Source: an uncultured delta proteobacterium (lineage in GTDB: Bacteria > Desulfobacterota > Syntrophorhabdia > Syntrophorhabdales > WCHB1-27). Taken from it: a stretch of DNA of 64,000 nt. The first letter of the stretch is position 1. Each line of letters starts with the position of its first letter. Under the pieces are notes generated by a model. The model worked only from the letters and a program-made list of their open reading frames with translations, did not search any database and had not been told where the DNA came from. The stretch is taken from positions 265,106-329,105 of the forward strand of contig CAVQYC010000005.1 of the NCBI GenBank assembly GCA_963717985.1, given 5' to 3'. The position numbers were made by a program, and so were the translations under genes. Below, piece after piece: positions 41,893-63,605 of the stretch.

Positions 41893-42897
41893 TCAAGCAG
41901 GTCGAGGTCTCCGGGTCGCTCTCCAGGGGAAAAGATCGGCGATTTGAACGAGGCCGCCCGCCATGGCTGTTATCACCAGGAGAGCAAGTGACAACCATGC
42001 AAAGGCCACCCCCGCCTGTCCATCGCCCCAGAAGGACTGAAAAAAGGCGAGAGAGAACCAATCTCGCAAGCCAAGCCCTGATATGGTCACTGGAAGGGAA
42101 ACAAGCACTGCAAGCACGGAGTAGAACACCACCACCTCGATCGTGCGGCAGCCCACGCCCAGCCCTCGGATTACAAGATAAAATGACAGCACACCCAGGC
42201 AGTGTATGAGCATACTGTATCCCATTGCTTTCAGAAGCAGACAAGGCTGACGCCTGTAAAGCTGCAGGGTATCGAAAGCCTGGCTGAAGAAAGCCAGGAT
42301 TCTATTGGAGGGACGCCGGCCTATTTCACGCCTGCCGAGCGCCTTTCCTACTAGACCTGCCCCGCAAGCTCCAAACAATAGTGCTAAGGCTCCGGCAGTG
42401 AATCCGTACCTGCCAAGCTTTTTCAAGTAGGGGTTCAAGGTCCCGTCGCCGAGCGCCAGAATCGCGCAGCTTATGACAAAGAAGACGAGCAGTGTGTAGA
42501 GACCGATGATCCTATCCATTGCTATCGACAAAGGTAGCTCCCCAACACGGGCATCCTTGTTCTTGAGCGCCAGCGAAGCACCCTTGGCCACGTCGCCGGA
42601 AACCACCCCGGGCAGGATTGCACCGTAGAACACCCCAATCCAATTGTATCTGAGAGTCTGCGCGTATGAAAGCAGGTCACCTGAAAGTATCTGCCAGCGA
42701 CGAGCGGCCAGAAAGAGGATAACCACGAAGCACATCAGAGAAGCTCCCGGAAAAACCAACCCCACGCTCCTAACTCGAGACACAACCTCTACCACATCAA
42801 CTTTTCTCAGAACAAGAAAGACTAGAATTGCCGATAGCAGGGCCTTGCCAATAAATATAGCGACTACCTTGACTTTCTTCATTCCCATTCGGCTCAA
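41893..42897 (-). CDS. Flippase-like / LPG-synthase-TM (UPF0104) family membrane protein
   Basis: The N-terminus KALLSAILVFLVLRKVDVVEV and about 8 TM segments fit the TIGR00374-type family. The frame opens with TTG at 42897, overlapping the upstream stop; ATG alternatives are at 42888 and 42882. Confidence 0.6.
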   Translation of the reverse strand: MSRMGMKKVKVVAIFIGKALLSAILVFLVLRKVDVVEVVSRVRSVGLVFPGASLMCFVVILFLAARRWQILSGDLLSYAQTLRYNWIGVFYGAILPGVVSGDVAKGASLALKNKDARVGELPLSIAMDRIIGLYTLLVFFVISCAILALGDGTLNPYLKKLGRYGFTAGALALLFGACGAGLVGKALGRREIGRRPSNRILAFFSQAFDTLQLYRRQPCLLLKAMGYSMLIHCLGVLSFYLVIRGLGVGCRTIEVVVFYSVLAVLVSLPVTISGLGLRDWFSLAFFQSFWGDGQAGVAFAWLSLALLVITAMAGGLVQIADLFPWRATRRPRPA

Positions 42898-44030: not shown

Positions 44031-44915
44031 CTAGGAGACCTTATAAATGTTGGACACGTTTTGGTTCATGGCCCTTTTTCTTAATACAAATATATGACAT
44101 GAACTCCCTAATATATAGCTAAGATGCCTCCTGAGTTTAAGTGATAGTGCCGACCCAAGAATCCCATACCCTGTATAAAACAATCTATTCGTAAATATCT
44201 TTTCTATTTTCCAGTCGGTAATTGTAAACAGTTTAACCCATTTATGTCTGCTGAAATGATACAATTCGGTAAATGCAGTACCGATTTCTCCATGCCTAGG
44301 TGCGAGCGCCATTCTTCTAAGTAGATAACCAAGGCTCAAGTGTTGTATTCTTGACAGATCGTTGGTTTTGGCGACATTTTCCGCTTCGCCAGAACTATCT
44401 TCACTTTTTGACGACGCTAGTTGTTTGATAATGATGTTTTTGATGGTTTTGATTACAAACCCGTAGTGTGCCACATTTGTCCAAAATCGCCAACTCCCGC
44501 TGGGGACTATATTGATAGAAAGGCCATCTGATTTCAATACTCTCTTAATTTCATGTTGAAACGCTATAACATGAGGGACATGTTCTAATACGTTTGAGGT
44601 GAACACAATATCAAAATAATCATCTGGAAAGGGGATATGTTTACCGTCATAGTTTGTTATAGGCCAAATCCTACCTTTTGAGTAATTACTACTGTCAATA
44701 TCTATTGCCTCGACGGAATGACCGTTCTCACTTAGTTTTTGTGACTGCCATCCCGAGCCGGCTCCGATTTCCAATATGATATTTCGTCCAGGCTTTTCTA
44801 TTTTTATCTCAGATAATACACACTCAAGTTCCAATAAACGTATTGACTCAAGATACTCTAAAGTCATTAATGAATCCCGAAAAGCAGCCACGAATACCCT
44901 ATTATTTTGTATCAT
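44031..44915 (-). CDS. Class I SAM-dependent methyltransferase
   Basis: Motif I ILEIGAGSG, AIDID and FDIVFTSNVLEHV. The ATG at 44915 is preceded by GGAGG. The ORF track extends the frame to 45014. Confidence 0.8.
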   Translation of the reverse strand: MIQNNRVFVAAFRDSLMTLEYLESIRLLELECVLSEIKIEKPGRNIILEIGAGSGWQSQKLSENGHSVEAIDIDSSNYSKGRIWPITNYDGKHIPFPDDYFDIVFTSNVLEHVPHVIAFQHEIKRVLKSDGLSINIVPSGSWRFWTNVAHYGFVIKTIKNIIIKQLASSKSEDSSGEAENVAKTNDLSRIQHLSLGYLLRRMALAPRHGEIGTAFTELYHFSRHKWVKLFTITDWKIEKIFTNRLFYTGYGILGSALSLKLRRHLSYILGSSCHIFVLRKRAMNQNVSNIYKVS

Positions 44916-44949
44916 GGTGTGCCACCTCCGTCCGAAATAATGAGATGGT

Positions 44950-46809
44950 CTATCCAGCCGGTTCGTTCCATCGCGACAAAAGCCACGCATTCCAGAGAAA
45001 CGCGCGGTGATCATGGCGGCTGCTCCGATGCTCTTCGATCATGCGTTTCGTGAATGCGGCGTTGATTAAGCCGGTGCCGTCGGTTCCATCAACCGCGAAA
45101 TTGCCGTTCTGAAACCATTTGCCGATGGGAACTCCGAAGCCTTTTTTGGAGCGGTAGAGGATGCTGCCGGGGAGTACCGGCTCAAGAGCCTTCTTGAGTA
45201 TGTATTTGGATTGTCCCCTCCTGCACTTATAGTCACTGGGGATTCGCCGAACAAAATCGACGAGATCGATGTCAAGAAAGGGGGCACGGACCTCCAGAGA
45301 GTTCATCATGCTGGCGCGGTCTACCTTGACCAGGATATCATCCTGCAAATAAAGTTTTGTGTAAAACTGCAGCGTCTTGTCGGTCAGGTTATCCTGGGGA
45401 CAATTTTCCCAGTGCTCGATGGCCTCGGCATACACTTCCTCAAGGTCGACCGGTTCGTTGAACAGCTCCGCAAGATCGGTGGGATCAAGCGGCCCAAGCC
45501 ACACCGCGTTCCAGAATCGGCAAGGGTAGCTCAATCCGCGGAGGGTCCGCTTTATTCTGAAGTCAAGACTCATGTTTCGATGGGAGGTAGGTAGGCGAGC
45601 CATCACCATCCGGATCGCGGCATGAATCGGCTTCGGGACCAGGCGACCATATAGTTCGGCCCAGTAGAGTGCTTTGAATGGATCATAGCCGGCGAACAAC
45701 TCGTCTGCACCATCGCCACCGAGAGCCACTGTGACCTGCCTTCGTGCCTCCCTGCAGAGCAAGAATGTGGGTAGGATGGAGCTGTCACCCATGGGTTCGT
45801 CAAGTTTGCCGGCAATGTCGTCCAACAGCGACGCCGATCTCTCCAGAGAAAGGAATTCGAGGACATGGTCCGTCCCGAGAAAGGATGCTACTTGCCGTGA
45901 ATAGCTGGATTCATCAAATGATGGTTCCTCAAAACCGATTGAGAATGACTTGATCCTGTCTCCCGCGGAAGAAACCGCGAAAGCGGCAATTGAGGAAGAG
46001 TCGATTCCGCCGCTGAGGAAAATACCCAGCGGAACATCCGACATAAGTCTACGCTTGACGGCTCGCTGCAAGAGGTCGCGAATGGCCTCTCCCCATTCAC
46101 TCTCCGGGTTTTGTGGGATCTTCTCGAAAGGTTCTATCGCAAGGTCCCAGTATTTTGTGATCTCAACCTCCATCCGGGGCAGGCTTAGGAGCAGGTTGTA
46201 TCCACCCGGCAGCTTGAGAATCTTGTGATACAAGGACCAGGGGGCCGGAATGTATCCGTAGGCAAAGTATTTCTTAAGGCTCATCGGGTTGATACTTGTC
46301 ACTATAGACGGATGCTTGACGAGTGAACTCAGCTCGGAGGCGAAGGCAAATGTTCCATTCTGAAGTGAATAAAAGAGCGGCTTCTTGCCAAAACGGTCGC
46401 GACTGATAAATATCTCCTGCTTCTGCCGGTCATAAATAGCGAATGCCCACATACCGTTCAGCCTCTGGGGCAGACCGTCGCCCCACTCCCGGTATCCGTG
46501 GAGTAAGACCTCCGTGTCCGAATGGTCTGACGAGAATCGGTGGCCGGCGTCGGTCAGGGCTGCACGAAGGTCGACATGGTTGTAAATCTCCCCATTGAAG
46601 ACCACGCCGAGGGCTCCGTCGGCCGTCCACATCGGCTGATTTCCACCTGCCAGATCGATGATGGAAAGCCTGCGATGCCCGAGATATACGGCTTTCTTTT
46701 CATCGCTCCACAGCCCCTCAGCATCAGGGCCACGGTGGGTCATAGCCCTTGACATACGTGTCAGGTCCTGCAAATCGCCTTGACCGACAAAACCGCAAAT
46801 GCCGCACAT
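44950..46809 (-). CDS. asnB: Asparagine synthase (glutamine-hydrolysing) family amidotransferase
   Basis: N-terminal nucleophile MCGICG, the Ntn glutaminase domain and the PP-loop FLSGGIDSS. Confidence 0.9.
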   Translation of the reverse strand: MCGICGFVGQGDLQDLTRMSRAMTHRGPDAEGLWSDEKKAVYLGHRRLSIIDLAGGNQPMWTADGALGVVFNGEIYNHVDLRAALTDAGHRFSSDHSDTEVLLHGYREWGDGLPQRLNGMWAFAIYDRQKQEIFISRDRFGKKPLFYSLQNGTFAFASELSSLVKHPSIVTSINPMSLKKYFAYGYIPAPWSLYHKILKLPGGYNLLLSLPRMEVEITKYWDLAIEPFEKIPQNPESEWGEAIRDLLQRAVKRRLMSDVPLGIFLSGGIDSSSIAAFAVSSAGDRIKSFSIGFEEPSFDESSYSRQVASFLGTDHVLEFLSLERSASLLDDIAGKLDEPMGDSSILPTFLLCREARRQVTVALGGDGADELFAGYDPFKALYWAELYGRLVPKPIHAAIRMVMARLPTSHRNMSLDFRIKRTLRGLSYPCRFWNAVWLGPLDPTDLAELFNEPVDLEEVYAEAIEHWENCPQDNLTDKTLQFYTKLYLQDDILVKVDRASMMNSLEVRAPFLDIDLVDFVRRIPSDYKCRRGQSKYILKKALEPVLPGSILYRSKKGFGVPIGKWFQNGNFAVDGTDGTGLINAAFTKRMIEEHRSSRHDHRAFLWNAWLLSRWNEPAG

Positions 46810-46811
46810 AA

Positions 46812-47831
46812 TCAATTGCCTTCAAAGTTACGGGATTCCGAGACGGAATATACCGGTTTCTGCTGGGATTCGTGATAGGTCCTGATAAGAATCTCAGCTA
46901 TCAGACCCATAAGAACGCACATGACGCCGGTGATGCTGCACATTATGAAGAGCAGGGGTAAAGGGGTTGAGATAAAAGCTTTGCCGTGGAAGAGCTTGTA
47001 GTACAGGCTGGCAACAGCCGAGCAAAATGCGGCCATGAGATTCAGGATTCCAAAGACACCGAAGACGTAAATCGGTTTCTGGGCATATTTGGCAAAAAAC
47101 TTTACCACGATGAGATCGAGGAGCACCTTGACCGCCCTTTCAATCCCGTACTTCGACTTGCCGTGTATCCTTGCATGGTGATTGACGGGGATCTCCGTGA
47201 CTCTCGCCCCTTCCCAAAAGGCATATATGGGGATGAAACGATGCATCTCGCCGTAAAGCTTGACCTCTTTTATAACCTCTTTTCTGTAAGCTTTAAGGGA
47301 GCAGCCGTAGTCGTGGAGATGGACCCCGGAAATCCAGGATATCAGGAAATTGGCAATGCGACTGGGCAGGTTGCGCCTCAAGGCATGGTCTTTGCGGTTC
47401 TTACGCCATCCCGAGCACACGTCGTACCCTTCTTCCAGCTTGGCAAGCAAAAGCGGTATATCCTGCGGGTCGTTTTGGAGGTCTCCATCCATGGGAACCA
47501 GCACATCCCCCGAGGAAAAATCGATTCCCGCCATCATCGCCGCCGTTTGACCAAAATTTCTCCGGAAGTGGATCACTTTTACCCGGAGGTCCCTTTCGGC
47601 CAGTTTGTCCAGGGTACTCTTAGTTCCGTCGGTAGATCCGTCGTTAATGAAAATCAATTCGAACGGGCAACCAAGGATTGGCGCCACATTCAACACCATT
47701 TCATAAAGGGGCAGGATATTTTGTTCCTCATTGTAAACAGGTACGATGAAAGATAGAAGCCCGAGCCATGAGGGGTCAGTCATGGTTCTTGCCCGGGGCG
47801 CGTCTGCATCAAAGGGATGAGGGGTTTTCAT
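46812..47831 (-). CDS. GT2 polyprenyl-phosphate glycosyltransferase (GtrB/ArnC/DPM1-like)
   Basis: VPVYNEE, INDGSTDGT, MDGDLQNDP and two C-terminal TM helices. The ATG at 47831 forms an ATGA overlap with the upstream gene. Confidence 0.8.
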   Translation of the reverse strand: MKTPHPFDADAPRARTMTDPSWLGLLSFIVPVYNEEQNILPLYEMVLNVAPILGCPFELIFINDGSTDGTKSTLDKLAERDLRVKVIHFRRNFGQTAAMMAGIDFSSGDVLVPMDGDLQNDPQDIPLLLAKLEEGYDVCSGWRKNRKDHALRRNLPSRIANFLISWISGVHLHDYGCSLKAYRKEVIKEVKLYGEMHRFIPIYAFWEGARVTEIPVNHHARIHGKSKYGIERAVKVLLDLIVVKFFAKYAQKPIYVFGVFGILNLMAAFCSAVASLYYKLFHGKAFISTPLPLLFIMCSITGVMCVLMGLIAEILIRTYHESQQKPVYSVSESRNFEGN

Positions 47832-49278: not shown

Positions 49279-51747
49279 TCAGTTTATCCGCTCGTACACA
49301 CTCACGAGCTCCCCTTTCGCGATTTTTCTATAGTTGTTTCTTACCCCATCGAATACTTTTTTCAATTCAAGGAGTCTTCCGTATCTTGAAGCCCTCTCAT
49401 TTTTGTCGAAATTACTGATAAATAGTGTATTCCATGGATCGAAGGGCTTGTTGGTGAGATCGATATCCGTATCCACGAAGAGGAATCGCGCGCGGTTCTT
49501 TTCAATGCTATCAACCGCCACCGCAGTATCCTCACGGGAAATCAAAGCCCAAGACAGTTCGAACTGGGGCATGCGGCTGTATTTACGAGCGAGAAATGGC
49601 AGAAGATTATCATACCGTGAGATAATGAAAATCCCGTCATCCGCTTCGCTGTATTTGTCTATGAGCGAGACGGCCTCTGTCAGTGGGGAAGGATTGATTG
49701 TCGTTATCACTTTTGCCCTCGGAAACTGCCAGTGATAGACGCGATGATCGGTGAAGTTATTATAAAACTCTTGTTTACCGGTGTAGTAACTAACGGCTGC
49801 AACTAACATAAGCAGGAAGAAACCGGCGGTAAGAGCCGCTACCCCCATGCGCAGTTTGTCTCTTGCTTCTTCCCTTTCCCTGAGGAGTACTTTATGCGCG
49901 ACGAAGAGCATAAGAAAGAGCTGTACTCCGAGAAAGGGAAGGACCAAAGGAAGATGGTTGAGAAAGCCGGACCAGTAGAAGTAAACGAGCAACCCCTGGC
50001 TGTACATGAAGCTGAACGTATAGAGGTATTTGACAGGTTCTCTGTGAGGCCTCAATAAGAGCATGAATGCATAGGATACGACCAGGTAAAAAAGCGTCAA
50101 TACCACAATCACTCTTTCGGGCTCCCATGAGAAGTAGCCGAGAAGGAAGTAGTGGAAATCGTGAGCCGATTTTCCGGCGGGCAGAAGAAGAAGCAGGGCA
50201 ACGTCCAAGGCAAGCATGGCGACAGTGATTGCAACCGCAGGATAAGTTCCTTTTTTGTAGAAGTTTTCAAGAATGAAAAGGCCTGCGATGAGGACAAAGG
50301 CTGTAGAAAGGATCGCCCCGAACTGAAAGCTGCACAATAGGGCCAGCGTTGAGGCAAGCGCCGCAAGGCCGAGAAAGATCAAGTTCTTCCGCGAAAAAAA
50401 CAGGACCAGCAGAATGAGTACCACTACATCGAACATGTGACCCGAAGGCATTATGCCCGGAGCTAACACGAAGCCTATAAAGCCTGTCCAGAAGAAAGCG
50501 AGGGCATAGACGGCGAAAGATCCGAGCGTGAACAGGCGATCCCCCTTGAACAGCATTCTCAGCATAATGAAGAAGAGCGCTGCGTAGATCAAATAGAATA
50601 CGTAGCACTTGTAGTACCCCTGGAGGGAGAGGTCTCCAGACAGGTCTGTCACCCATTTCATGAGAAACGTGTTCCCAACGCCATACTGAAAGTACGATTG
50701 GTCTAGTGGCCTGCCTAGCGCATATTCATTGAGTGGGTTAAGGATGTGGCCGATATGGTTGATCTGCCCCCTAGTCATGTTCTGATGTTGGTATTCCAAC
50801 ACATTGTTGAGATAGAAGCTCTTTATGTCTTCGATATCGGTGTTCGGATTCCGGATTGTCGAATTATCACCAAGTTTCTCTCCACCCTCGAGCGTAGAAG
50901 GTTCGTTCACCTTGCGATCGAGGTCATGGTATGCCTCGATCGGCCTGAGGTCCTCACTCTTCACGAAGGCAAGGACGACTGATCGGGATTTGATCGTCCT
51001 GTAGTTAATCGCTTTGTATCGATTCCTTAGGTCCTGAAATAAGGTGAAATCATATGCATTCTCGTGAAACCGGCCCAAAAACTCTCTGTTATTAACGTAC
51101 TTGTTTCTGATTAATGTCTCGCCATACAGGTCCTGGTACTCATTCATGAGATAAACCGGACCGAGCATGAGAAAGAAAGGCTCAAGAAGCAGCGCAAAAA
51201 GAATCAGATAGGAGCAGGCTAGCGACATTCGGGACAAGCGCCGGACAAGCGCCAGTTTGTCCGGCTTCCATGATGGAGTCAGAAAGAGTATCAGAGGAAT
51301 TACGAATATGAGGGCATAGACAGTGGGGCGTAATCCTGTAAAGAAAAAAGCGGTAGTGCCGAGACCGGATAAGGAAAGAATAGGTGACGCCACAAGGAGC
51401 AGGTATCCGATGCCATCGCTTTTGTTTCTTACGTAGCTTGTCAGTCTCCCGGTATAGAGGCATAGAGCACAAGCCCCGAGGAACGCAGCAACAATCACAT
51501 AATTGAATAGAGAACTCTCGGAGGGGTGGAAGAAGATATATACCCACGTATTGACATCGAGCTTCCCTATGACGGAGCTCTTCACGAAGGTAACCAGTTC
51601 CCACAGAAGAAGCGCCGCACCCGTCACCGAGAGCATGAGCTGAATGGTCAATAAGATAGTCTTACGTTCCGACAAGTTCCGAAAAGTCTCCTTGGTTATT
51701 CTGCGACTTTTGAGGAAAGGCTTGCCCTGCTGCGTGCGCTTGGGCAA
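49279..51747 (-). CDS. Large uncharacterised polytopic membrane protein (822 aa) in the GtrC position
   Basis: TM bundles occupy residues ~30-210 and ~390-650. They are separated by a ~170-aa hydrophilic insert, and a ~150-aa soluble C-terminus follows. TTG start, so the start is uncertain. No motif recognised. Confidence 0.5.
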   Translation of the reverse strand: MPKRTQQGKPFLKSRRITKETFRNLSERKTILLTIQLMLSVTGAALLLWELVTFVKSSVIGKLDVNTWVYIFFHPSESSLFNYVIVAAFLGACALCLYTGRLTSYVRNKSDGIGYLLLVASPILSLSGLGTTAFFFTGLRPTVYALIFVIPLILFLTPSWKPDKLALVRRLSRMSLACSYLILFALLLEPFFLMLGPVYLMNEYQDLYGETLIRNKYVNNREFLGRFHENAYDFTLFQDLRNRYKAINYRTIKSRSVVLAFVKSEDLRPIEAYHDLDRKVNEPSTLEGGEKLGDNSTIRNPNTDIEDIKSFYLNNVLEYQHQNMTRGQINHIGHILNPLNEYALGRPLDQSYFQYGVGNTFLMKWVTDLSGDLSLQGYYKCYVFYLIYAALFFIMLRMLFKGDRLFTLGSFAVYALAFFWTGFIGFVLAPGIMPSGHMFDVVVLILLVLFFSRKNLIFLGLAALASTLALLCSFQFGAILSTAFVLIAGLFILENFYKKGTYPAVAITVAMLALDVALLLLLPAGKSAHDFHYFLLGYFSWEPERVIVVLTLFYLVVSYAFMLLLRPHREPVKYLYTFSFMYSQGLLVYFYWSGFLNHLPLVLPFLGVQLFLMLFVAHKVLLREREEARDKLRMGVAALTAGFFLLMLVAAVSYYTGKQEFYNNFTDHRVYHWQFPRAKVITTINPSPLTEAVSLIDKYSEADDGIFIISRYDNLLPFLARKYSRMPQFELSWALISREDTAVAVDSIEKNRARFLFVDTDIDLTNKPFDPWNTLFISNFDKNERASRYGRLLELKKVFDGVRNNYRKIAKGELVSVYERIN

Positions 51748-51759
51748 ATTGATTCGGCT

Positions 51760-52212
51760 TCATCTATTCTTAAAGGAGAACTTCGAGTGTCCTACATAAC
51801 TTATGATGACACAGGCGAGGATCACGAGAGCGGCCGCGAACTTTGGAGTGAGCCTGAAGAATTCGACGAAGACAGGCAAAAGCACGAGGCTTAGCAGAAA
51901 AGTGCCGACATAGGTGAGGCAAAATCGAATAAACTCGATTATGAGAGAGGTACCCTCTTTAGTTGACCTGAAAGTAATGTACTTGTGGAAGACATATGCA
52001 TTGATGACCGAAATGATGTTTGAGACGATATTGGCACTCATATACGTGAGGTAACGGGTCTGAAAGACACCGGTAAAAAGCGTGTCAAAGAGAACGAACA
52101 TCAGATATCCGAATAGGGTATTCCACGCCCCGACAGCGACGAACCTCGCCTTCGTTTCATGTCTCTTATAAAGAGACAGATAGTGAGTTGATTCCGTGAT
52201 TGACATCTGCAT
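51760..52212 (-). CDS. gtrA: GtrA-family small membrane protein (polyprenyl-P-sugar translocase-like)
   Basis: 150 aa with 4 TM segments. FVAVGAWNTLFGYLMFVLF is the GtrA-family N-terminal signature. Confidence 0.75.
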   Translation of the reverse strand: MQMSITESTHYLSLYKRHETKARFVAVGAWNTLFGYLMFVLFDTLFTGVFQTRYLTYMSANIVSNIISVINAYVFHKYITFRSTKEGTSLIIEFIRFCLTYVGTFLLSLVLLPVFVEFFRLTPKFAAALVILACVIISYVGHSKFSFKNR

Positions 52213-52285: not shown

Positions 52286-53227
52286 TTATGGCTTCTCGAA
52301 GCCTATCTTTTGATTGACAATGAAACTCGGCCTCGCCTTCACTTCCTCGTATATCTGCGCGATATACTGCCCCAATATCCCGAGGATGAAGAAAAGGATT
52401 CCGAACATCAACACGATGAGTGAAACGATTGTGCCATACCCGGCGAAGGGGACACCTTTCAAAATTATCCTGGCCACGGTAAACAGGAGATAGAGGAGCG
52501 ATACTCCCGATACAAATACACCGAAAACTGAGATGGAGCGAATGGGGATGTACGAGAAGGCAAATATGCTGCTCACGGCGAGCTGGACCACGTGAAACGA
52601 ATGGGCATGGGACTGCCCGGAAAACCTCCTGGCGCGCTCGTATTCCACCCCGACGGACTTGAAGCCGGTCCATGCGACCATGCCGCGAATAAAGCGGTTG
52701 CGCTCTTTCATGAAATTGATCGTTTCGTATACCTTTCGGTCAATAAGTCTGAAATCGCTCACGTTCTGTGGAATGAGATCATCGGTCATGACGTTTATTA
52801 TCTTGTAAAAGAGCACCGAGTTGAACCGCCTCAATAACCCCTTGCCCGTCCTCTTCTTTACTATGCCATAGACGTTTTCATACCCTTCTTCCCATCGCTT
52901 GATGAACTCGGTGATGACCTCCGGTCTGTCCTGCAGGTTTGCCGTCATAATAACGGCGGCATCGCCCCTGGCGTGGCTCAGCCCCGCCGTGATGCCCCCA
53001 TCCATCCTAAAATTCCTTGATAACTGGACAATCTTGAAACGTCTGTCCTCTTCGTTGACCTTGAGCATCTTTTCGAATGTGTGGTCTTGGGAGCCGTTTT
53101 CAACCAGGATGACTTCGAAATCATACTTATCGTTCTCATTGAATACAGCCTTGAGCTGCCGGGCCAGCTCGTCTACGTTGCCTTCCTCATTGTATGCTGA
53201 GGCAACTATGCTTATCAGTTTTTTCAC
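52286..53227 (-). CDS. gtrB: GT2 polyprenyl-phosphate glycosyltransferase (GtrB/ArnC-like)
   Basis: SAYNEEGNV, VENGSQDHT, MTANLQDRP and two C-terminal TM helices. Confidence 0.8.
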   Translation of the reverse strand: MKKLISIVASAYNEEGNVDELARQLKAVFNENDKYDFEVILVENGSQDHTFEKMLKVNEEDRRFKIVQLSRNFRMDGGITAGLSHARGDAAVIMTANLQDRPEVITEFIKRWEEGYENVYGIVKKRTGKGLLRRFNSVLFYKIINVMTDDLIPQNVSDFRLIDRKVYETINFMKERNRFIRGMVAWTGFKSVGVEYERARRFSGQSHAHSFHVVQLAVSSIFAFSYIPIRSISVFGVFVSGVSLLYLLFTVARIILKGVPFAGYGTIVSLIVLMFGILFFILGILGQYIAQIYEEVKARPSFIVNQKIGFEKP

Positions 53228-56753: not shown

Positions 56754-58568
56754 CTACTCCTTGAGCGGCTCTAATATCATATTACTGAGCATCTCTTCTC
56801 TCGACAAAAATGGATACATGTCTTCGAGAGGCTTTGATACAATCCTTCCGTCCGGCTCTTTCTTGGATGAAACGCGGGGACTGAAATTCTGTTCAGGTGA
56901 GAGGATGACTTCACAAACCACAGGTCCCGGGGTTGTCAGTACCTCTTCTATCCTTTCTTTCAGGCCAATCTGGTTGGCGATAACGGCCGAAGGGATTCCA
57001 TAGGCGACCGCGACCCGACAAACATCGGGGAAGGTAACGCCGCTGCTCGGACCGCACGCAACATACCTGCTCTCGAAAAAGCTGTCCTGCGTCTGCCTGA
57101 TGGATACGTAGCCGCCGTTGTTCAGAACAAAGAGTTTTACGGGGACTTTGTGATGGGATAACGTCTGCAACTCCTGTATGTTCATTTGCAGGCTCCCGTC
57201 CCCCGCCAGGCACACGACCGGATTTCCCGATGAGCCGAGGCAAGCGCCTACGGCCGCCGGCAGGTCGTATCCCATGGAGGCACATCCCGAGTTCCAAAAG
57301 AAACGCTGCCCGTCCTTTACGATTCCTGCCTGAAAGAGTGTTACGCAAGCGGTTCCGTTTCCCGCGACCACGATTGCCCTTTCGTCGAGGGCCTCGGTTA
57401 ATGTCTGCATGAAACAGTAAGGATTGACGGGCTCTTTACGCTCCCAGTATTCGGTAAGCACGACCGGGTAGCGCTCTCTGCGCTCACGGCACCAGTCGAT
57501 CCAGGGTTGGCGGTTAGGGAAGGAGGCTATTTCCACTGCTTCCTTGAAACGGCGCAGGAACTCTGTAGCATCGGCGCGGATAGCGACATCGGGAAAAAAG
57601 GTCGGTTTCTTCAGCTCCGCCTCATCTATGTCCACAACGACCTTTATCGCGTTCTTGGCAAAATCACCTGAATTGTAACTCACCTGGCGGATATTGTTCC
57701 TGGAGCCGACCGATATGAGCAGGTCGGCGTTCTGGAGCGCGAAATTTCCAAACCTTGACCCGAGTGTTCCGGGCCTTCCGGCAAAAAGACGATGGCTTGA
57801 AGGTATGAGATCGAAGCCGCAGAATGAGGCAAGTACGGGAATTTGGATCTTATCTACCACCTGCCTGAACAGGTCGATGCCTTTGCTTATCCGGATGCCC
57901 TGTCCGGCCAGAAAAATGGGACGCTCGGCTTTTTGCAGCAGTGCGACCACCTGGGCGACTTGCCGCGAGAGCGCGGCCCCGTCGAACGGCATCTCGTCTT
58001 CCCGGTTGTCGTAGGGGGTGAGGCCATCGGGATCAACGAGGGCCGCCTGCACGTCGAGGGGTATGTCGAGCCAAACCGGGCCGGGCCGTCCGTGCGTGGC
58101 GAGATAGATCGCCTTATCAAGGTGATAGCGGATGTCCTGCGGACCTTTTACGATTGCCGTATACTTTGTCACGGGCCTCACGATATCCGTGATGTTGATT
58201 TCCTGGTCGCCGAGTTGTCTGAGGCTCAATTCGCGGCACGATTCTATTGTTGTTTCTTGCTTTACCTGTCCCGAGAGATAGAGAACAGGCACGGAGTCGA
58301 GCCATTGTCCAATGACGCCGGTGAGGGCATTGGTGCCGCCCGGACCGCTGGTCACGACCACGACGGCGAGCTTGCCCGTGACGCGGGAATACCCTTCTGC
58401 CGCAATGGCAGCCGCTTGCTCATGATGGGGACATATGTATTGGAGGCCCGGCTGCTTCCCTACGGAGTCAACTAGGTGCATCGCCCCTCCTCCAGAGATC
58501 ATAAAAACATCACGCACGGCATACTCGGTCGCAAGGCGGTTAGTCACATAGTCGGTCAACTTGATCAT
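56754..58568 (-). CDS. Thiamine-diphosphate-dependent enzyme, acetolactate-synthase-like (YerE-like candidate)
   Basis: 604 aa. N-terminal Pyr domain (ISGGGAMHL, VTSGPGGTNA) and the ThDP motif GDGSLQMNIQEL...NNGGY, with 24 residues counted between GDG and NN. Confidence 0.8.
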   Translation of the reverse strand: MIKLTDYVTNRLATEYAVRDVFMISGGGAMHLVDSVGKQPGLQYICPHHEQAAAIAAEGYSRVTGKLAVVVVTSGPGGTNALTGVIGQWLDSVPVLYLSGQVKQETTIESCRELSLRQLGDQEINITDIVRPVTKYTAIVKGPQDIRYHLDKAIYLATHGRPGPVWLDIPLDVQAALVDPDGLTPYDNREDEMPFDGAALSRQVAQVVALLQKAERPIFLAGQGIRISKGIDLFRQVVDKIQIPVLASFCGFDLIPSSHRLFAGRPGTLGSRFGNFALQNADLLISVGSRNNIRQVSYNSGDFAKNAIKVVVDIDEAELKKPTFFPDVAIRADATEFLRRFKEAVEIASFPNRQPWIDWCRERRERYPVVLTEYWERKEPVNPYCFMQTLTEALDERAIVVAGNGTACVTLFQAGIVKDGQRFFWNSGCASMGYDLPAAVGACLGSSGNPVVCLAGDGSLQMNIQELQTLSHHKVPVKLFVLNNGGYVSIRQTQDSFFESRYVACGPSSGVTFPDVCRVAVAYGIPSAVIANQIGLKERIEEVLTTPGPVVCEVILSPEQNFSPRVSSKKEPDGRIVSKPLEDMYPFLSREEMLSNMILEPLKE

Positions 58569-59713
58569 GCGTTGCAGTCTCTGTTTGCTTCCTGATCCAT
58601 GGAGGAATCAGCCTTTTTCCAGGGTCTCTTGCCGCCTTCCCGTTTCACCCGATGCCACTCGACCGTCTTCTTGATGGCGCTTATGAAGTCAACGTCTTGT
58701 CTTAACCCAAGTTCCTGACGCGCCTTCGAGGTACTTGGCACGTACCGCTCGGCCTGAAGGCCGGGCGCCTTCTTTTCGTTTATCGTGACCTGTTGGGGCG
58801 GGTCAAAGCAGTCGGCGACGGCGCGGGCGGTTTCGGAGATGGAAACGGCTTGTTCAGACCCCACATTATACGCAGACCCTGCCTTTCCCTTGAAAAGAAG
58901 GACCCATAGCCAGATGGCGAGATCCGAGGCGTAGAGATAGGAACGGAGGGGCGTCCCATCTCCCTTTACCACAATGGGACCCCCGTTGAGGCCATCCCGG
59001 ATAAAGTTCCCTATGGCAAAATGTGTGTCCAGATTCAAATAGGGTCCGACAAAGGCGAAACAGCGTGCGATCACGGTGTCAATCTCATAAGAACGGTGGT
59101 AAGTGGAACAAAGGAGCTCCCCCAATCTCTTGGCCTCACCATACGCCGAGCCGGGATCAAGGGGGTTGGGACCGCCGGAATAACTCTCGGCCACATGGCC
59201 TATGTGGGCGGACTGTTTCCCGTATACAGCCCCTGAGCTGATGAAAAGGAAACGCTCCGTTCCTCGATTCCTCGCCAGCTCCAGAACGGCTTGCGTCCCT
59301 TCGGTAATCGTTTGTACCATCAGCAGGGGAGTTTCCTTGTTCAATGCTGCACTCGCCTGGGCTGCCCCATGTATCACCGCGTCGAATGAGCCTTGGGGCC
59401 ATGCGAAGGTCCTCACATCACCCTGAGTGAACTGAAGGGCGGGATGGGAAGCAAGACGAGGACTGTTCCTCTTGAATGAGTCGAAGTCCCTGGTGAGGAC
59501 AGTCATCCGGGCTCGAAGGTCAAGTTTGTCGCAAGCCCACGTGAAGCTCTCAAGAAGCCACTTCCCGATGAAACCCGTTCCCCCGGTAACGAATATCGAT
59601 TTTCCCCGGAGCTGTTCCCATATCTCTCGCGTGGACGCCAGGATATGATCGAGATCGGAGGATAGCGGATTCTCGCGATTCGTCGTGCGACTGCCGGAAG
59701 GCCTTATTCCCAA
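58565..59713 (-). CDS. Extended SDR, NAD-dependent epimerase/dehydratase/reductase family (YerF-like or RfbS/RfbE-like candidate)
   Basis: VTGGTGFIGKWL Rossmann motif and the catalytic YGEAK (YxxxK). Confidence 0.75.
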   Translation of the reverse strand: MGIRPSGSRTTNRENPLSSDLDHILASTREIWEQLRGKSIFVTGGTGFIGKWLLESFTWACDKLDLRARMTVLTRDFDSFKRNSPRLASHPALQFTQGDVRTFAWPQGSFDAVIHGAAQASAALNKETPLLMVQTITEGTQAVLELARNRGTERFLFISSGAVYGKQSAHIGHVAESYSGGPNPLDPGSAYGEAKRLGELLCSTYHRSYEIDTVIARCFAFVGPYLNLDTHFAIGNFIRDGLNGGPIVVKGDGTPLRSYLYASDLAIWLWVLLFKGKAGSAYNVGSEQAVSISETARAVADCFDPPQQVTINEKKAPGLQAERYVPSTSKARQELGLRQDVDFISAIKKTVEWHRVKREGGKRPWKKADSSMDQEANRDCNA

Positions 59714-60426
59714 TCATCCACCTTGATGCTGCTTTCGGCTACCCCGGCCGCCGTCAAGCAGGACCTAAAGTCCCTAATCATCTGAAGGGGACCGGACAAA
59801 TAGTATACCGAAGCTGTCTCTGCCTTGTTTTCGGCATATATCTCTTCTATAGGGATGATACCCTGTCTGCATCGGCCGACGCCGTCCACGATGCTTCCAT
59901 CCTCGAAATAACAGGAATATTTAAAATCCGCCAATTGCTTCGCGCATTCTCTCAGAAGATCACCACAGATCAAGTCGGCGCCGGTCCTTACTCCGTAGTG
60001 GAGCCTGATCTGTGTGCCTGCCTGTTTATCAAGGCACTGCTCGAGAAAAGAGAGAAAAGGAGTCACTCCGGTGCCCCCTGCGATAAGAACAACCGGGTGG
60101 TCACTCAAGAAAGTGAAGCTCCCGTAAGGCAGCTTCACAAACAACTCGTCACCCTCTTTCACCTCGTGGAACATTCTGGAGGTGAAGGGGCCTTTTACCG
60201 CGAAGACAATCCTCAGTGGATCCCGTGAAGGGGCGCTTGCTATGGAGAAGACGCGTGATTCGGGCCAATGACTTGCGGGGTCATAGGGATCGAGTGCCAG
60301 GTGAAGAAATTGTCCTGGCTTGAAGACGGGGCATTTTTTCAGGGGTCTGAGAAGAAAGGTCTTGACCTTATCGGTATGCTGGATGACGGCTTCTACGACA
60401 ACGGGGATTTTTATCGGCGTAGTCAA
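59704..60426 (-). CDS. FNR-like FAD/NAD(P)H oxidoreductase (E3/AscD/DdhD-like, lacking the ferredoxin domain)
   Basis: FAD motif RVFSIAS and NAD(P) motif GGTGVTPF. At 240 aa it starts directly with the FAD beta-barrel. No Cys-rich 2Fe-2S N-terminal domain is present. Confidence 0.7.
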   Translation of the reverse strand: MTTPIKIPVVVEAVIQHTDKVKTFLLRPLKKCPVFKPGQFLHLALDPYDPASHWPESRVFSIASAPSRDPLRIVFAVKGPFTSRMFHEVKEGDELFVKLPYGSFTFLSDHPVVLIAGGTGVTPFLSFLEQCLDKQAGTQIRLHYGVRTGADLICGDLLRECAKQLADFKYSCYFEDGSIVDGVGRCRQGIIPIEEIYAENKAETASVYYLSGPLQMIRDFRSCLTAAGVAESSIKVDDWE

Positions 60427-61743
60427 CTAATGGTTCCTCAGGAACCGATCGAAGTGCTCGATGATGTAATCGATCTGCGGGTTGCCGAGACCGGGAAAGA
60501 CCCCGATAAAAAAAGTGTTCTCCATGATATAATCGGTGTTCCCCAGGTCGCCGATCTGTCGTTTTTCGATGTCCGCATAAGCCGGCTGGCGCGTCAGGTT
60601 CCCGGAGAAGAGGTTGCGCGTCTCGATCCCGTTTTGTTCGAGATAGGTGGACAGCTCGTTCCGGGTGAAGCCGCTGTTCTTCCTGACGCTTATGACAAAA
60701 CCGAACCAGGAAGGATCGCTGTGAGGGGTCGGCTCGGGCAAGAGCAGCCGGTCCTCGAACTGCCGCAACCCCTTGAGGATGCGGTCAAAATTCTCTTTTC
60801 TTTTTTCGATGAAGCCTTCCAGCTTATCGAGCTGCGCAACTCCTATGGCCGCCTGCATGTCGGTGGCCTTTAAATTGTATCCTATGTGTGAGTAAACGTA
60901 CTTGTGGTCATAGCCAAGCGGCAGGGTGCCGAATTGCTGCGTGAACCTCTTTCCGCAGGTATTGTTTTCACCTCCGCTGCAATAGCAGTCCCTTCCCCAG
61001 TCGCGAAAGGAGCGGACGATTCTTGCAAGATCTTCTGAGTTGGTAAGGACGCAGCCGCCTTCACCCATGGTAATGTGATGCGCCGGGTAGAAGGAACATG
61101 TGGCAAGGTCGCCGAAGGTGCCTGTCAGCTTTCCGGTATACCTGCTGCCCAAGGCGTCGCAATTATCTTCGATGACCCAGAGATTGTTTTTCCTCGCTAT
61201 TTCGACCACTGCCTCGACTTCGAAAGGATTCCCCATGGTGTGGGCCATGAAGATGGCGCGGGTCAGGGGACCTATAGCATCTGCGACCTGCTCGACAAGG
61301 GCATTGTAGGTTCCCAGGTGAACGTCGACAAAGACGGGAATGAGTCTGTTTTGAACGATCGGCGCCACTGTGGTGGGAAAACCTGCCGCTGCCGTGATGA
61401 CCTCGTCTCCCGGCTTGAGCCGCCTCTCTCCCAGCTTGGGGGACGTGAGGGCGCTGAGTGCCACAAGATTGGCGGACGAGCCGGAATTTACGAGGACCGC
61501 ATCGGAGAGGTCGAAGAAACCGGCGAACCTTGACTCGAATTCCTCTGCGTACCGGCCGGCAGTAAGCCAGAAATCGAGCGACGCGTCGACAAGATTGATC
61601 ATTTCCCGTTCGTCAAAGACCCGTCCTGCATAGCGGACGGGGGTTTTTCCGGGAATGAACGGACTCGCGCCGCAGCGCTGCCGGTGAAGCCGTCTTACCA
61701 AATCAAAAATGTCGCTTCTAATCTGCTCTTCTTCCCGCGTCAT
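60427..61743 (-). CDS. ddhC: CDP-6-deoxy-L-threo-D-glycero-4-hexulose-3-dehydrase (E1; RfbH/DdhC/AscC)
   Basis: DegT/RfbH-type blocks NSGSSANL, SFYPAHHITMGEGG (His in place of the PLP Lys) and GYDHKYVYSHIGYNLKATDMQAA. The E1 iron-sulfur motif C-X57-C-X1-C-X7-C was counted directly (EDNC ... RDCYCSGGENNTC). Confidence 0.9.
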   Translation of the reverse strand: MTREEEQIRSDIFDLVRRLHRQRCGASPFIPGKTPVRYAGRVFDEREMINLVDASLDFWLTAGRYAEEFESRFAGFFDLSDAVLVNSGSSANLVALSALTSPKLGERRLKPGDEVITAAAGFPTTVAPIVQNRLIPVFVDVHLGTYNALVEQVADAIGPLTRAIFMAHTMGNPFEVEAVVEIARKNNLWVIEDNCDALGSRYTGKLTGTFGDLATCSFYPAHHITMGEGGCVLTNSEDLARIVRSFRDWGRDCYCSGGENNTCGKRFTQQFGTLPLGYDHKYVYSHIGYNLKATDMQAAIGVAQLDKLEGFIEKRKENFDRILKGLRQFEDRLLLPEPTPHSDPSWFGFVISVRKNSGFTRNELSTYLEQNGIETRNLFSGNLTRQPAYADIEKRQIGDLGNTDYIMENTFFIGVFPGLGNPQIDYIIEHFDRFLRNH

Positions 61744-62836
61744 CAGTGAGCATCCGTTCCATGTAGTCTTTGATCTGGTCTACGTTCACTCGGGCCATAT
61801 CGGCGTTCCCGCTGGATGCCCTGTACCACTCGACCGTTCTCTTGACCGCCTCCTGTACCCGGAGGCATGGCGTCCAGCCGAGCTTATAGCGGGCCTTGTT
61901 GATGTCGAGGATAAGCAGACCGTCTTCATGCGACTGATTATCGACCGCGGTCGATTCCCATGACCCCGATCCCCATTCTGATACTACGAGTCCGACAAGC
62001 TCGCCGACGGTTATAGTAGAATATCTTTCGGGGCCGAAGTTCCATGGGCCGCTGTACATATCCGGATGCTCGCTCATCATCGCCCCGAGGAGCAGGTAGC
62101 CGCCGAGGGGCTCCAGGACGTACTGCCATGGCCTTATAGCATAGGGACTCCTGACCTTTATCGCCTCTCCCGTTTCAAGAAACCTGATGCAGTCAGGCAC
62201 GATCCGGTCTTTGGACCAATCGCCGCCGCCTATCACATTTCCCGCCCGCACCGTGGCGAGAGCCTTTCCGTATGGTTGCGGTCTGTTGCCGTTGAAGAAG
62301 GACTTCGCGTAAGCCGCGCTTATAAGCTCCGAACAGCCCTTGCTCGCGCTGTAGGGGTCATGACCGCCCATAGGGTCGCACTCCCTGTATCCCCAAAACC
62401 ATTCCTTGTTCTCATAGCACTTGTCGCTTGTCACATTAACGATTATCCCGGCCGAATCTGAAAGTCTGCAGCTCTCCAAAACATTGACGGTGCCCCCCAG
62501 ATTCGTGTCAAACGTCTCCTTGGGGCTTTCGTAACCTTTCATTACGAGCGCCTGGGCTGCGAGGTGGAAGACAAACTCCGGCTTGAACTCTTCGAAGACC
62601 TTCCGGAGTGCTCCTAAGTCTCTCACATCGCCACGGACGTCAACGATCCGATCCCCCAACCGTGAGACTACGAAATTGTCACGGGCGGTACGGGGATCAA
62701 GGGCATACCCGACGACATGAGCACCAAGCTCGGCCAGCCAGAGCGCGAGCCAGGAGCCCTTAAATCCTGTGTGGCCGGTTATCAGGACTCTGCGGTCACG
62801 GTAGCACTTTTGAAGGAGATCAGCCGCGCGTCCCAT
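61718..62836 (-). CDS. rfbG: CDP-glucose 4,6-dehydratase
   Basis: VLITGHTGFKGSWLALWL and YSASK are typical RfbG signatures. The ATG at 62836 lies 1 nt after the rfbF stop. The ORF track extends the frame to 62881. Confidence 0.9.
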   Translation of the reverse strand: MGRAADLLQKCYRDRRVLITGHTGFKGSWLALWLAELGAHVVGYALDPRTARDNFVVSRLGDRIVDVRGDVRDLGALRKVFEEFKPEFVFHLAAQALVMKGYESPKETFDTNLGGTVNVLESCRLSDSAGIIVNVTSDKCYENKEWFWGYRECDPMGGHDPYSASKGCSELISAAYAKSFFNGNRPQPYGKALATVRAGNVIGGGDWSKDRIVPDCIRFLETGEAIKVRSPYAIRPWQYVLEPLGGYLLLGAMMSEHPDMYSGPWNFGPERYSTITVGELVGLVVSEWGSGSWESTAVDNQSHEDGLLILDINKARYKLGWTPCLRVQEAVKRTVEWYRASSGNADMARVNVDQIKDYMERMLTDDAGRRAD

Positions 62837-62837
62837 T

Positions 62838-63605
62838 CTACCAGACCTTCCAGGGGCAGGCGCCTGAATCCCAGAGCTCATTGAGGAGCATCACATCCCT
62901 CAAGGTGTCCATGCACTGCCAGAAACTGTCGTGCTTATACGCCGCCAATTGGCCATCCCGCGCCAGCCGCTCCAGGGGCTGGCGTTCAAAAGGCATCTCG
63001 TCGCCGCTAATGTAATCGAAAACTCCCGGCTCCAATACAAAAAACCCTCCGTTGATCCAGCCTTCCCCTAACTGCGGCTTTTCGATGAAGTCGGTGACCA
63101 GCCCGTTATCGATGGCCATACCCCCGAACCTGGACGGTGGACGTACGGCGGTTACGGTGGCAAGCTTGCCATGGCTCTTGTGGAATGCCAGGAGTGCCTG
63201 AATGTCGATATCGGCCACCCCGTCCCCATAAGTGAGCATGAAGGTTTGATTGTCCAGATAGTTCCGGATGCGCAGGATGCGGCCTCCCGTCATCGTCTTG
63301 TCGCCGGTATCGACGAGGGTAATCCTCCACGGCTCGGTACTGTTACTGTGAAGAAGGGAGCTGTTGGTTCTCAGGTCGATGGTAATGTCCGATCCGTGGG
63401 TTACATAGTTTGCGAAGAATTCTTTGATCGTGTAGCCCTTGTACCCCAGGCAGACTACGAAATCCTCAAAGCCCCAGCGTCCGTATATCTTCATGATATG
63501 CCAGATGATCGGTCTCCCTCCGATTTCAACCATGGGTTTTGGCTTGACAATAGTTTCCTCGGTCAAGCGTGTGCCTAGTCCGCCGGCCAGAATGACAGTT
63601 TTCAT
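62838..63605 (-). CDS. rfbF: Glucose-1-phosphate cytidylyltransferase
   Basis: MKTVILAGGLGTRL...KPKPMVEIGGRPIIWHIMKIY is the RfbF N-terminal signature. The ORF track extends the frame to 63641. Confidence 0.9.
   Translation of the reverse strand: MKTVILAGGLGTRLTEETIVKPKPMVEIGGRPIIWHIMKIYGRWGFEDFVVCLGYKGYTIKEFFANYVTHGSDITIDLRTNSSLLHSNSTEPWRITLVDTGDKTMTGGRILRIRNYLDNQTFMLTYGDGVADIDIQALLAFHKSHGKLATVTAVRPPSRFGGMAIDNGLVTDFIEKPQLGEGWINGGFFVLEPGVFDYISGDEMPFERQPLERLARDGQLAAYKHDSFWQCMDTLRDVMLLNELWDSGACPWKVW

Follow-up and report, generated by a model that had tools for sequence, protein, structure and literature searches.

The DNA analysed here is a stretch of 64,000 nucleotides (nt), referred to as the window, from an uncultured delta proteobacterium of the Syntrophorhabdales lineage WCHB1-27 (contig CAVQYC010000005.1, positions 265,106 to 329,105). 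Our subject is a gene cluster towards its right end that combines the core genes of CDP-3,6-dideoxyhexose synthesis with a thiamine diphosphate (ThDP)-dependent enzyme. A sequence-only reading had described six contiguous, co-directional genes at 56754–63605 and taken them for a yersiniose-type pathway. All six open reading frames (ORFs) were confirmed, on the minus strand. We suggest, with about an even chance of being right, that these genes form an operon whose product is a CDP-activated 3,6-dideoxyhexose bearing a 4-C-acyl branch that is long and polyhydroxylated, of the erwiniose/caryophyllose class, and not yersiniose.

The first of the six genes, rfbF, starts at an ATG at 63605, which fits both the family model and the gene callers (255 amino acids (aa) in the identical contigs that are present in several metagenome assemblies); a longer ORF with a TTG start extends to 63641. 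The six genes stand as a set; their lower boundary at 56754 was arbitrary, as the array continues past it. The gap between the ThDP gene and the first downstream gene, which encodes HpcH paralogue A, is only 30 nt, and the junctions from rfbF through the AroB-like gene range from −44 to +30 nt, which argues for one operon. Beyond the AroB-like gene follow genes for a family 2 glycosyltransferase (GT2), GtrA, an 822-aa membrane protein, a GT87 protein and further transferases, and the co-directional, tightly spaced array extends to about 33 kb (Table 1). In the identical contigs (L001–L003, 2998–4794), just past the right edge of the window, an RmlA-like nucleotidyltransferase gene (split into at least two ORFs in some assemblies) and an RmlD-like reductase gene are found ahead of rfbF, so that the window may not contain the start of the operon.

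Table 1. Genes of the cluster and of its distal array, listed from the right edge of the window leftwards (SDR, short-chain dehydrogenase/reductase; PMP, pyridoxamine phosphate; FNR, ferredoxin–NADP reductase; DHQS, dehydroquinate synthase; SAM, S-adenosylmethionine)
Feature	Position	Strand	Basis
rfbF/ddhA, glucose-1-phosphate cytidylyltransferase, 255 aa	62838..63605	-	TIGR02623 equivalog
rfbG/ddhB, CDP-glucose 4,6-dehydratase	61718..62881	-	TIGR02622 equivalog
rfbH/ddhC (E1), PMP/[2Fe-2S] CDP-6-deoxy-4-keto-glucose 3-dehydrase	60427..61743	-	NF011936, Cys motif
FNR-type flavin reductase, 240 aa, candidate E1 electron donor	59704..60426	-	Pfam NAD_binding_1 only
Extended SDR (SDR382), 382 aa, proposed branch-carbonyl reductase	58565..59713	-	Pfam Epimerase 145 bits
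YerE-like ThDP carboligase, 604 aa, JanthE-related subfamily	56754..58568	-	three TPP domains, tree
HpcH/HpaI-type class II pyruvate-aldolase-like, paralogue A, 266 aa	55923..56723	-	PF03328 37.7 bits vs 25
HpcH/HpaI-type aldolase-like, paralogue B, 265 aa	55100..55897	-	PF03328 28.1 bits vs 25
Classical FabG-like SDR (SDR224), 224 aa	54406..55080	-	adh_short_C2 162 bits
AroB-related DHQS-like enzyme, 356 aa	53345..54415	-	TIGR04425
GT2 polyprenyl-phosphate glycosyltransferase-like (GtrB/ArnC/PgfS type)	52286..53227	-	PF00535
GtrA-family small membrane protein, putative flippase component	51760..52212	-	PF04138 71.7 bits
822-aa polytopic membrane protein, candidate GT-C-like transferase	49279..51747	-	hydrophobic segments, no family match
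AsnB-like amidotransferase	44950..46815		
SAM methyltransferase	44031..45014	-	
LPG_synthase_TM protein	41893..42897	-	
B12-binding radical-SAM enzyme	40266..41732	-	
SAM methyltransferase	39152..40093	-	
572-aa protein	37437..39155	-	no Pfam or NCBIfam family
SAM methyltransferase	35482..36309	-	
SAM methyltransferase	34745..35446	-	
SAM methyltransferase	33884..34675	-	
SAM methyltransferase, FkbM type	32956..33693	-	
IS3-family transposase	31562..32422	-	rve + HTH_21
Wzx-like flippase	28942..30306		
GT2	27971..29023		

The CDP-3,6-dideoxyhexose core can be assigned from NCBIfam equivalog models beyond reasonable doubt. RfbF scored 411.9 bits against a cut-off of 300, RfbG 455 bits against 278 and the E1 dehydrase RfbH 706 bits against 423. 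The cysteine motif reported earlier for E1, C-X57-C-X1-C-X7-C, was recovered by script as C195-X57-C253-X1-C255-X7-C263. In the same protein, which is 54% identical to DdhC of Yersinia bercovieri, a His replaces the lysine that binds pyridoxal phosphate (SFYPAHH, residues 217–223).

A canonical E3, the reductase partner of E1, consists of a plant-type [2Fe-2S] ferredoxin domain joined to FAD and NAD(P)H domains. The protein previously called an FNR-like E3 does contain an FNR module, but its identity as an E3 did not hold, because the [2Fe-2S] domain is missing. Neither a Fer2 domain (Pfam) nor an Fe–S cysteine motif (script) was found in its 240 residues, and it aligns to only residues 100–315 of Y. 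bercovieri DdhD, with 26% identity. Its orthologues occur in only 6 of the 80 related loci that we collected from reference genomes and metagenome-assembled genomes (MAGs), many of them on short contigs, and scored by tblastn with the window proteins. A ferredoxin ORF that might offset the missing domain was sought and none was found anywhere in the window; among the 41 RfbH-bearing loci of the window's ThDP subfamily, only one has an ORF with a plant-type ferredoxin motif. From an FNR protein without an Fe–S domain and the lack of a ferredoxin gene, we infer that E1 in these organisms takes its electrons from the FNR-only protein or from housekeeping systems.

The ThDP protein has the three-domain architecture PF02776/PF00205/PF02775 and the catalytic Glu50, and a script confirmed the GDG-X24-NN motif noted earlier, starting at residue 456. 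Public annotations at such loci are generic ('acetolactate synthase large subunit', 'hypothetical protein', 'ferredoxin-NADP reductase'). Its best score with an acetohydroxyacid synthase (AHAS) model was 363 against a cut-off of 538 (TIGR00118), with the other AHAS models far under their cut-offs, and it fell under all NCBIfam cut-offs for Gcl and for sulfoacetaldehyde acetyltransferase (Xsc). The best PDB match was JanthE (8rph, 421 bits), followed by PpYerE (5ahk, 278 bits) and AHASs at about 250 bits. A neighbour-joining tree was built from the window family, JanthE, PpYerE, three Yersinia YerE orthologues and Escherichia coli IlvB, IlvI, Gcl and PoxB; the E. coli paralogues were its only outgroups, and ErwE, MMAR_2332 and MyGE lay outside its sampling. 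By split frequencies, all YerE-like proteins separated from AHAS/Gcl/PoxB in 100 of 100 bootstrap replicates, the window's family joined JanthE in 100 of 100, and the classical YerE clade, also at 100/100, was separate from the window's clade (100/100). The protein thus falls with the YerE-like enzymes, as the sequence-only reading had supposed, and not with AHAS, Gcl or PoxB, and its Xsc scores are below cut-off. Identity is 32–33% to Yersinia YerE, 37% to JanthE and 29% to AHAS. With only 32–33% identity to Yersinia YerE, it is a member of the YerE-like group that falls into a subfamily of its own, with hundreds of members at 50–79% identity in many phyla. We regard it as a YerE-like carboligase that is predicted to accept the ketone of a CDP-4-keto sugar.

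The neighbouring extended SDR, SDR382, carries the GxGxxG and YxxxK motifs. It had been placed in the role of YerF, and by orthology this placement fails: the two proteins are 26% identical over 200 aa (E = 7e-6), and SDR382 cannot be counted as an orthologue of YerF. Only 2 of the 80 related loci have a true one. Orthologues of SDR382 were found in 24 loci, in 14 of which they lie directly upstream of the ThDP gene, and never together with a 294-aa epimerase-type reductase that is encoded near the ThDP gene in 31 loci and is not present in the window. We propose that SDR382 is a functional analogue of YerF that would reduce the branch carbonyl.

Four further genes follow the ThDP gene. The two HpcH-like proteins are 50% identical to each other, and the single-copy homologues in other loci are closer to paralogue B than to paralogue A. 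Because a PDB search by sequence gave no match, a structure model was used. The AlphaFold2 model of paralogue A had a pLDDT of 93, and its top Foldseek matches were HpaI, HpcH, YfaU and GarL, with probability 1.0 and a TM-score of about 0.57. In a profile alignment, the family-invariant E114 and D143 align with the YfaU metal ligands E153 and D179. The next protein, SDR224, has the TGxxxGIG and YxxxK motifs.

The AroB-like protein scored 406 bits against the TIGR04425 cut-off of 400 and 263 against the aroB (TIGR01357) cut-off of 305; TIGR04425 is named 'AroB-related putative sugar phosphate phospholyase (cyclizing)'. Its closest PDB entries are true DHQS (164 bits, versus 110 for EEVS and 106 for DOIS). 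All catalytic and ligand, NAD and metal positions of DHQS that were checked against E. coli AroB are kept in the window protein and in at least 90% of 27 homologues. They are numbered as in Aspergillus nidulans DHQS and include those with carboxylate- and phosphate-binding roles. At 356 aa, compared with 362 aa for E. coli AroB, the protein has no extra domain. The complete DHQS ligand set and the lack of an extra domain make it likely that the substrate is a small, free molecule resembling 3-deoxy-D-arabino-heptulosonate 7-phosphate (DAHP).

The related loci show how these genes travel together. They come from Paenibacillus, Gabonibacter, Elusimicrobia, Melainabacteria/Vampirovibrio, Bacteroidota, Nitrosospira, Legionellaceae, Planctomycetes, Acidobacteria, Wolfebacteria of the candidate phyla radiation (CPR) and others, and include the cultured strains Paenibacillus sp. 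CGMCC 1.60098, which has the whole cassette, Effusibacillus consociatus, and Gabonibacter massiliensis GM7, whose locus is of the HpcH + HAD type. Across the 80 loci, RfbF, RfbG and RfbH were matched in 43, 45 and 42, respectively, HpcH in 41, SDR224 in 29 and the AroB-like protein in 28. In most of them the ThDP gene is embedded among ddh genes, and the order ThDP, HpcH, SDR224, AroB-like is repeated across many phyla. In the 42 well-flanked loci, those with at least 5 kb on both sides of the ThDP gene, RfbH lies within 6 kb of the ThDP gene in 28, HpcH is present in 25, and HpcH or NeuB in 36. Unbiased clustering of ORFs brought out neighbours that have no counterpart in the window: NeuB+SAF synthases in 25 loci and two families of haloacid dehalogenase (HAD) phosphatases in 17 and 8 loci.

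HpcH, which depends on pyruvate, and NeuB, which depends on phosphoenolpyruvate, both yield 3-deoxy-2-ulosonic acids. Beside the ThDP gene they exclude each other (both in 0 loci, HpcH only in 38, NeuB only in 25 and neither in 14; nominal Fisher p = 2e-10). The AroB-like gene is coupled to SDR224 (22/3/2/50 in the same order of both, first only, second only and neither; nominal Fisher p = 6e-14) and anti-correlated with the HAD phosphatases (2/23/22/30; odds ratio 0.12, nominal p = 0.003), a pattern that fits two alternative disposals of a terminal phosphate. Together, the ddhA/B/C-type genes, the non-AHAS, YerE-like carboligase and the neighbouring reductase predict a 4-C-branched CDP-3,6-dideoxyhexose, and to this extent the sequence-only reading stands. 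Its two-carbon branch from pyruvate is not supported: the ThDP enzyme belongs to a separate subfamily and is syntenic with aldolases, an SDR and a DHQS-like gene, all of which the classical clusters lack.

In roughly one in three related loci (for example, L022, L024, L030, L035 and L040–L045), the ThDP gene is adjoined by a NeuB+SAF gene instead of an HpcH gene. RfbH is nearby in 8 of 25 NeuB loci and in 25 of 38 HpcH loci, and its scarcity in the former hints at a different acceptor keto-sugar there. The combination of ThDP, ddh and HpcH genes was also seen in the complete 984-kb genome of a Candidatus Wolfebacteria member of the CPR (L018), and in a contig binned into a Halobacteriales MAG (L048), which could reflect horizontal transfer or a binning error.

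Downstream of this module, the GT2 protein has C-terminal transmembrane helices, and its best NCBIfam matches, PgfS and ArnC, are both below cut-off. The 822-aa membrane protein matched no Pfam or NCBIfam family. Its hydrophobic segments number about 13 or more, and with a large loop and a soluble domain at the C terminus its topology is GT-C-like; it takes the slot held in the Y. bercovieri cluster by a DUF7024 protein to which it has no sequence similarity. Its homologues occur in only about five related loci.

Further along the array lie six SAM methyltransferases, a radical-SAM enzyme, an AsnB-like amidotransferase and an LPG_synthase_TM protein, a collection that suggests a heavily methylated or otherwise modified glycan. 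The IS3-family transposase gene stands at the distal end of this array, adjoined by the genes for the Wzx-like flippase and a second GT2.

From the enzyme families, motifs, tree position and co-occurrence described above we infer substrates, an order of steps, an outcome for the DHQS-like reaction and a route of export. RfbF, RfbG and E1/RfbH would make CDP-4-keto-3,6-dideoxy-D-glucose, with electrons from the FNR-only reductase or from housekeeping reductases. One or both HpcH-type aldolases would join pyruvate to an aldose phosphate such as erythrose-4-phosphate, giving a DAHP-like 3-deoxy-2-ulosonate phosphate. At the phosphate end of this molecule, the DHQS-like enzyme could carry out NAD+-dependent oxidation, β-elimination of phosphate and re-reduction, and SDR224 would reduce the ketone that is left; the product we favour is an ω-deoxy 2-keto acid, for example 3,7-dideoxy-heptulosonate. 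The YerE-like enzyme would then decarboxylate the 2-keto acid and attach the resulting acyl anion to the CDP-sugar at its C4 ketone, after which SDR382, or the 294-aa reductase in other loci, would reduce the branch carbonyl. Finally, the GT2 may load the sugar on polyprenyl phosphate, GtrA may help to flip it and the 822-aa membrane protein may transfer it to a surface glycan. Across the loci, HpcH or NeuB would thus provide a 3-deoxy-2-ulosonate, probably phosphorylated, and the phosphate would be lost either by HAD hydrolysis or by DHQS-like elimination followed by SDR224.

Published enzymology lends support to this scheme. ErwE, MMAR_2332 and MyGE take as donors 4-hydroxy-2-oxo acids that aldolases produce, and pyruvate is rejected by ErwE (PMC9306805). 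The side chain of caryophyllose is 1,3,4,5-tetrahydroxyhexyl, that is, 2,6-dideoxy (PMC5706390), from which the donor can be deduced to be 3,7-dideoxy-heptulosonate, a 7-deoxy, DAHP-like acid.

Could the branch nonetheless be the two-carbon one? The ThDP enzyme would then use pyruvate as YerE does and SDR382 would reduce the acetyl group, giving CDP-yersiniose or a close C2 variant, and the downstream genes would serve another component of the glycan. The gene logic of ddhABC, a YerE-like enzyme and an SDR is indeed present, and the order ddhA-B-C, ThDP and then GT2, GtrA and membrane protein mirrors Y. bercovieri. JanthE, from Janthinobacterium sp. HH01, is a ketone-accepting, YerE-like carboligase with unknown physiological substrates and a broad range of donors that includes 4-hydroxy-2-oxovalerate and also pyruvate (PMC12188165). 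As the nearest characterised relative (37%) accepts pyruvate, a C2 branch is conceivable. We nevertheless consider this outcome unlikely. The window's subfamily is distinct from classical YerE by identity and by two fully supported clades; an HpcH or NeuB gene adjoins the ThDP gene in the 36 of 42 well-flanked loci, always one or the other, and classical clusters have neither; and SDR382 is no YerF orthologue, while the ThDP gene lies just those 30 nt from the first aldolase gene.

Alternatively, the ThDP enzyme might couple the ulosonate phosphate first, with the DHQS-like enzyme cyclising the attached side chain and SDR224 reducing the ring ketone. We think it improbable that the steps run in this order, and we would hardly expect the resulting product, a cyclitol-branched or carbocycle-fused sugar comparable to caryose. 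The chemistry has its attractions: once coupled, the side chain would be an exact analogue of DAHP in which C4 of the sugar replaces the carboxylate; every residue for full cyclisation is kept in a protein whose NCBIfam name includes 'phospholyase (cyclizing)'; and the AroB-like gene is tightly coupled to that of a ketoreductase, SDR224. Caryose, moreover, occurs with caryophyllose in Burkholderia caryophylli, and its biosynthesis is reported as unknown (PMC9092360). Set against this, the AroB-like enzyme keeps what we take to be the carboxylate-binding positions of DHQS and, being of AroB length, offers no extra domain to hold a CDP-sugar. We also know of no carbocycle-branched 3,6-dideoxyhexose. 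A cyclase acting on a sugar-linked side chain was downgraded on the complete DHQS-type ligand set and the lack of an extra domain.

The aldolase, SDR and DHQS-like genes might also make a separate building block, such as an ulosonic acid, a quinate-like cyclitol or a deoxy sugar, with the ThDP enzyme drawing another cellular 2-keto acid as donor. Glycan loci often bundle several sugar pathways, the array in the window holds many more transferases and methyltransferases, and some related loci have the AroB-like and SDR224 genes without HpcH or NeuB. Such independence is quite unlikely in our estimate: the conserved neighbours include no nucleotidyltransferase, nor any other enzyme that would activate a second block, and adjacency to the ThDP gene that is conserved in order across phyla, together with the alternation of HpcH and NeuB, is hard to explain without a shared pathway. 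The reading of a housekeeping acetolactate synthase or Xsc caught in a glycan locus, which the public annotation of the ThDP protein and its 29% identity to E. coli IlvI might suggest, has next to no chance, because the protein scores far below the AHAS, Gcl and Xsc cut-offs, stands 100/100 apart from AHAS/Gcl/PoxB, has no small regulatory subunit gene adjacent and is surrounded by ddh genes in most related loci; an AHAS identity is thus refuted by NCBIfam scores, tree and gene context.

For the long-branched sugar that we favour, several observations pull the other way. The window's ThDP subfamily is, as a sequence-defined group, biochemically uncharacterised, and the window was compared with ErwE, MMAR_2331/2332 and MyGE through published descriptions. 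The HpcH-like proteins are highly divergent (12–17% identity to known aldolases); their catalytic Arg is apparently Lys55, a position read by eye outside the confident alignment; and the scheme leaves the second paralogue unexplained. The co-occurrence p-values are nominal because the loci are phylogenetically non-independent, and genes that co-occur are linked to one locus or glycan but need not belong to one pathway. Last, the complete DHQS catalytic set leads one to expect cyclisation of the substrate. If the free acid were cyclised, the product would be an α-hydroxy acid, which the ThDP enzyme could not decarboxylate; ω-deoxygenation would thus be possible only with the aldol step suppressed or outpaced.

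Clusters of YerE-like branched-sugar genes with aldolases are already known (PMC9306805), and an in silico survey of more than 200 YerE-like branched-sugar clusters is cited in a review (PMC12247030). Nothing relevant on TIGR04425, or on a dehydroquinate synthase tied to YerE or to branched sugars, was found in the literature searched, the scope of which did not extend to that survey. Neither thiamine nor aldolase or cyclase genes come up in the bradyrhizose paper, and the papers on Mycobacterium marinum lipooligosaccharides mention no dehydroquinate-synthase-like gene. The TIGR04425 DHQS-like/SDR module, the alternations of HpcH with NeuB and of HAD with DHQS-like genes, and the near-universal absence of E3 thus appear to be undescribed in the accessible literature.

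We suggest tentatively, at somewhat less than an even chance, that a DHQS homologue (TIGR04425) and a ketoreductase have been recruited to nucleotide-sugar biosynthesis, either as a builder of a carbocyclic branch or as a phosphate-eliminating 'omega-deoxygenase'. The first would place a quinate-like or caryose-like carbocycle on a CDP-3,6-dideoxyhexose; the second would start from a DAHP-like ulosonate phosphate and yield the keto acid, ending in a methyl group, that serves caryophyllose-type sugars as donor. If true, either role would be a new function of the DHQS fold and would point to a widespread, multi-phylum and chemically undescribed class of surface sugars, given that the window's subfamily spans Proteobacteria, Firmicutes, Cyanobacteria/Melainabacteria, Elusimicrobia and CPR bacteria. 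The locus also points to an origin, open to testing, for side chains that are omega-deoxy and polyhydroxylated, and possibly for caryose and other carbocyclic sugars. The modular donor genes (HpcH or NeuB; HAD phosphatase or DHQS-like enzyme plus SDR) suggest a rule by which the type of side chain could be predicted from sequence, and the cultured strains are nominated for isolating the sugar. The branch predicted for Paenibacillus sp. CGMCC 1.60098 and E. consociatus is methyl-terminated or carbocyclic, and that for G. massiliensis GM7 is CH2OH-terminated. Yersiniose, erwiniose and caryophyllose are antigenic determinants on bacterial envelopes, and ThDP branching enzymes are sought as biocatalysts for chiral tertiary alcohols.

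The earlier view that the pathway had been worked out only in Yersinia is outdated, given the published studies of ErwE, MMAR_2332, MyGE and JanthE (PMC9306805, PMC12188165). The window can be set beside all of these systems. Among classical clusters, that of Y. bercovieri comprises ddhD (329 aa; Fer2, FAD and NAD domains), ddhA, ddhB, ddhC, yerE, yerF, GtrA, GT2 and a 748-aa DUF7024 membrane protein, and that of Pseudomonas protegens is ddhDABC-yerE-yerF; no aldolase, NeuB, HAD or AroB-like gene was found in either. In the Y. bercovieri locus (L094, 12632–16267) the GtrA, GT2 and DUF7024 genes stand directly after ddhDABC-yerE-yerF, which suggests that yersiniose is handled there through a Gtr-type lipid carrier and not as part of an O-unit. 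Like the yersiniose A pathway, the window has the RfbF/RfbG/E1 core and a YerE-superfamily ThDP enzyme adjoining an extended-SDR reductase, and, as in Y. bercovieri, genes for a GT2, GtrA and a large membrane protein follow. Unlike Yersinia, it has a ThDP enzyme of another subfamily, no YerF orthologue, an E3 candidate without the [2Fe-2S] domain and, behind the ThDP gene, an insertion of four genes, two for HpcH aldolases, one for an SDR and one for a DHQS-like enzyme.

Of the characterised relatives of the ThDP protein with a solved structure, JanthE (PDB 8rph, 8rpi and 8rpj) is the closest; its ThDP motif is an unusual CDG, whereas the window protein has the canonical GDG. With AroB and the sugar-phosphate-cyclase superfamily, the AroB-like protein shares fold, length, NAD and metal sites and all checked catalytic and ligand positions; unlike AroB, it scores under the aroB cut-off and is encoded in glycan loci with an SDR and a ThDP carboligase, not with shikimate-pathway genes. 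In overall make-up the window resembles the clusters for erwiniose (ErwE/ErwI), caryophyllose (MMAR_2331/2332) and gastriose (MyGE/MygI), which, as described, likewise combine ddh genes, a YerE-like ThDP enzyme, a pyruvate aldolase and a reductase; MMAR_2331 is described as a member of the aldolase/citrate-lyase (HpcH) family, the Pfam family of the window's two aldolase-like proteins (PMC9306805). It differs from these three clusters in its two aldolase paralogues and in its DHQS-like enzyme with a dedicated SDR, a pair that goes unmentioned in the accessible papers.

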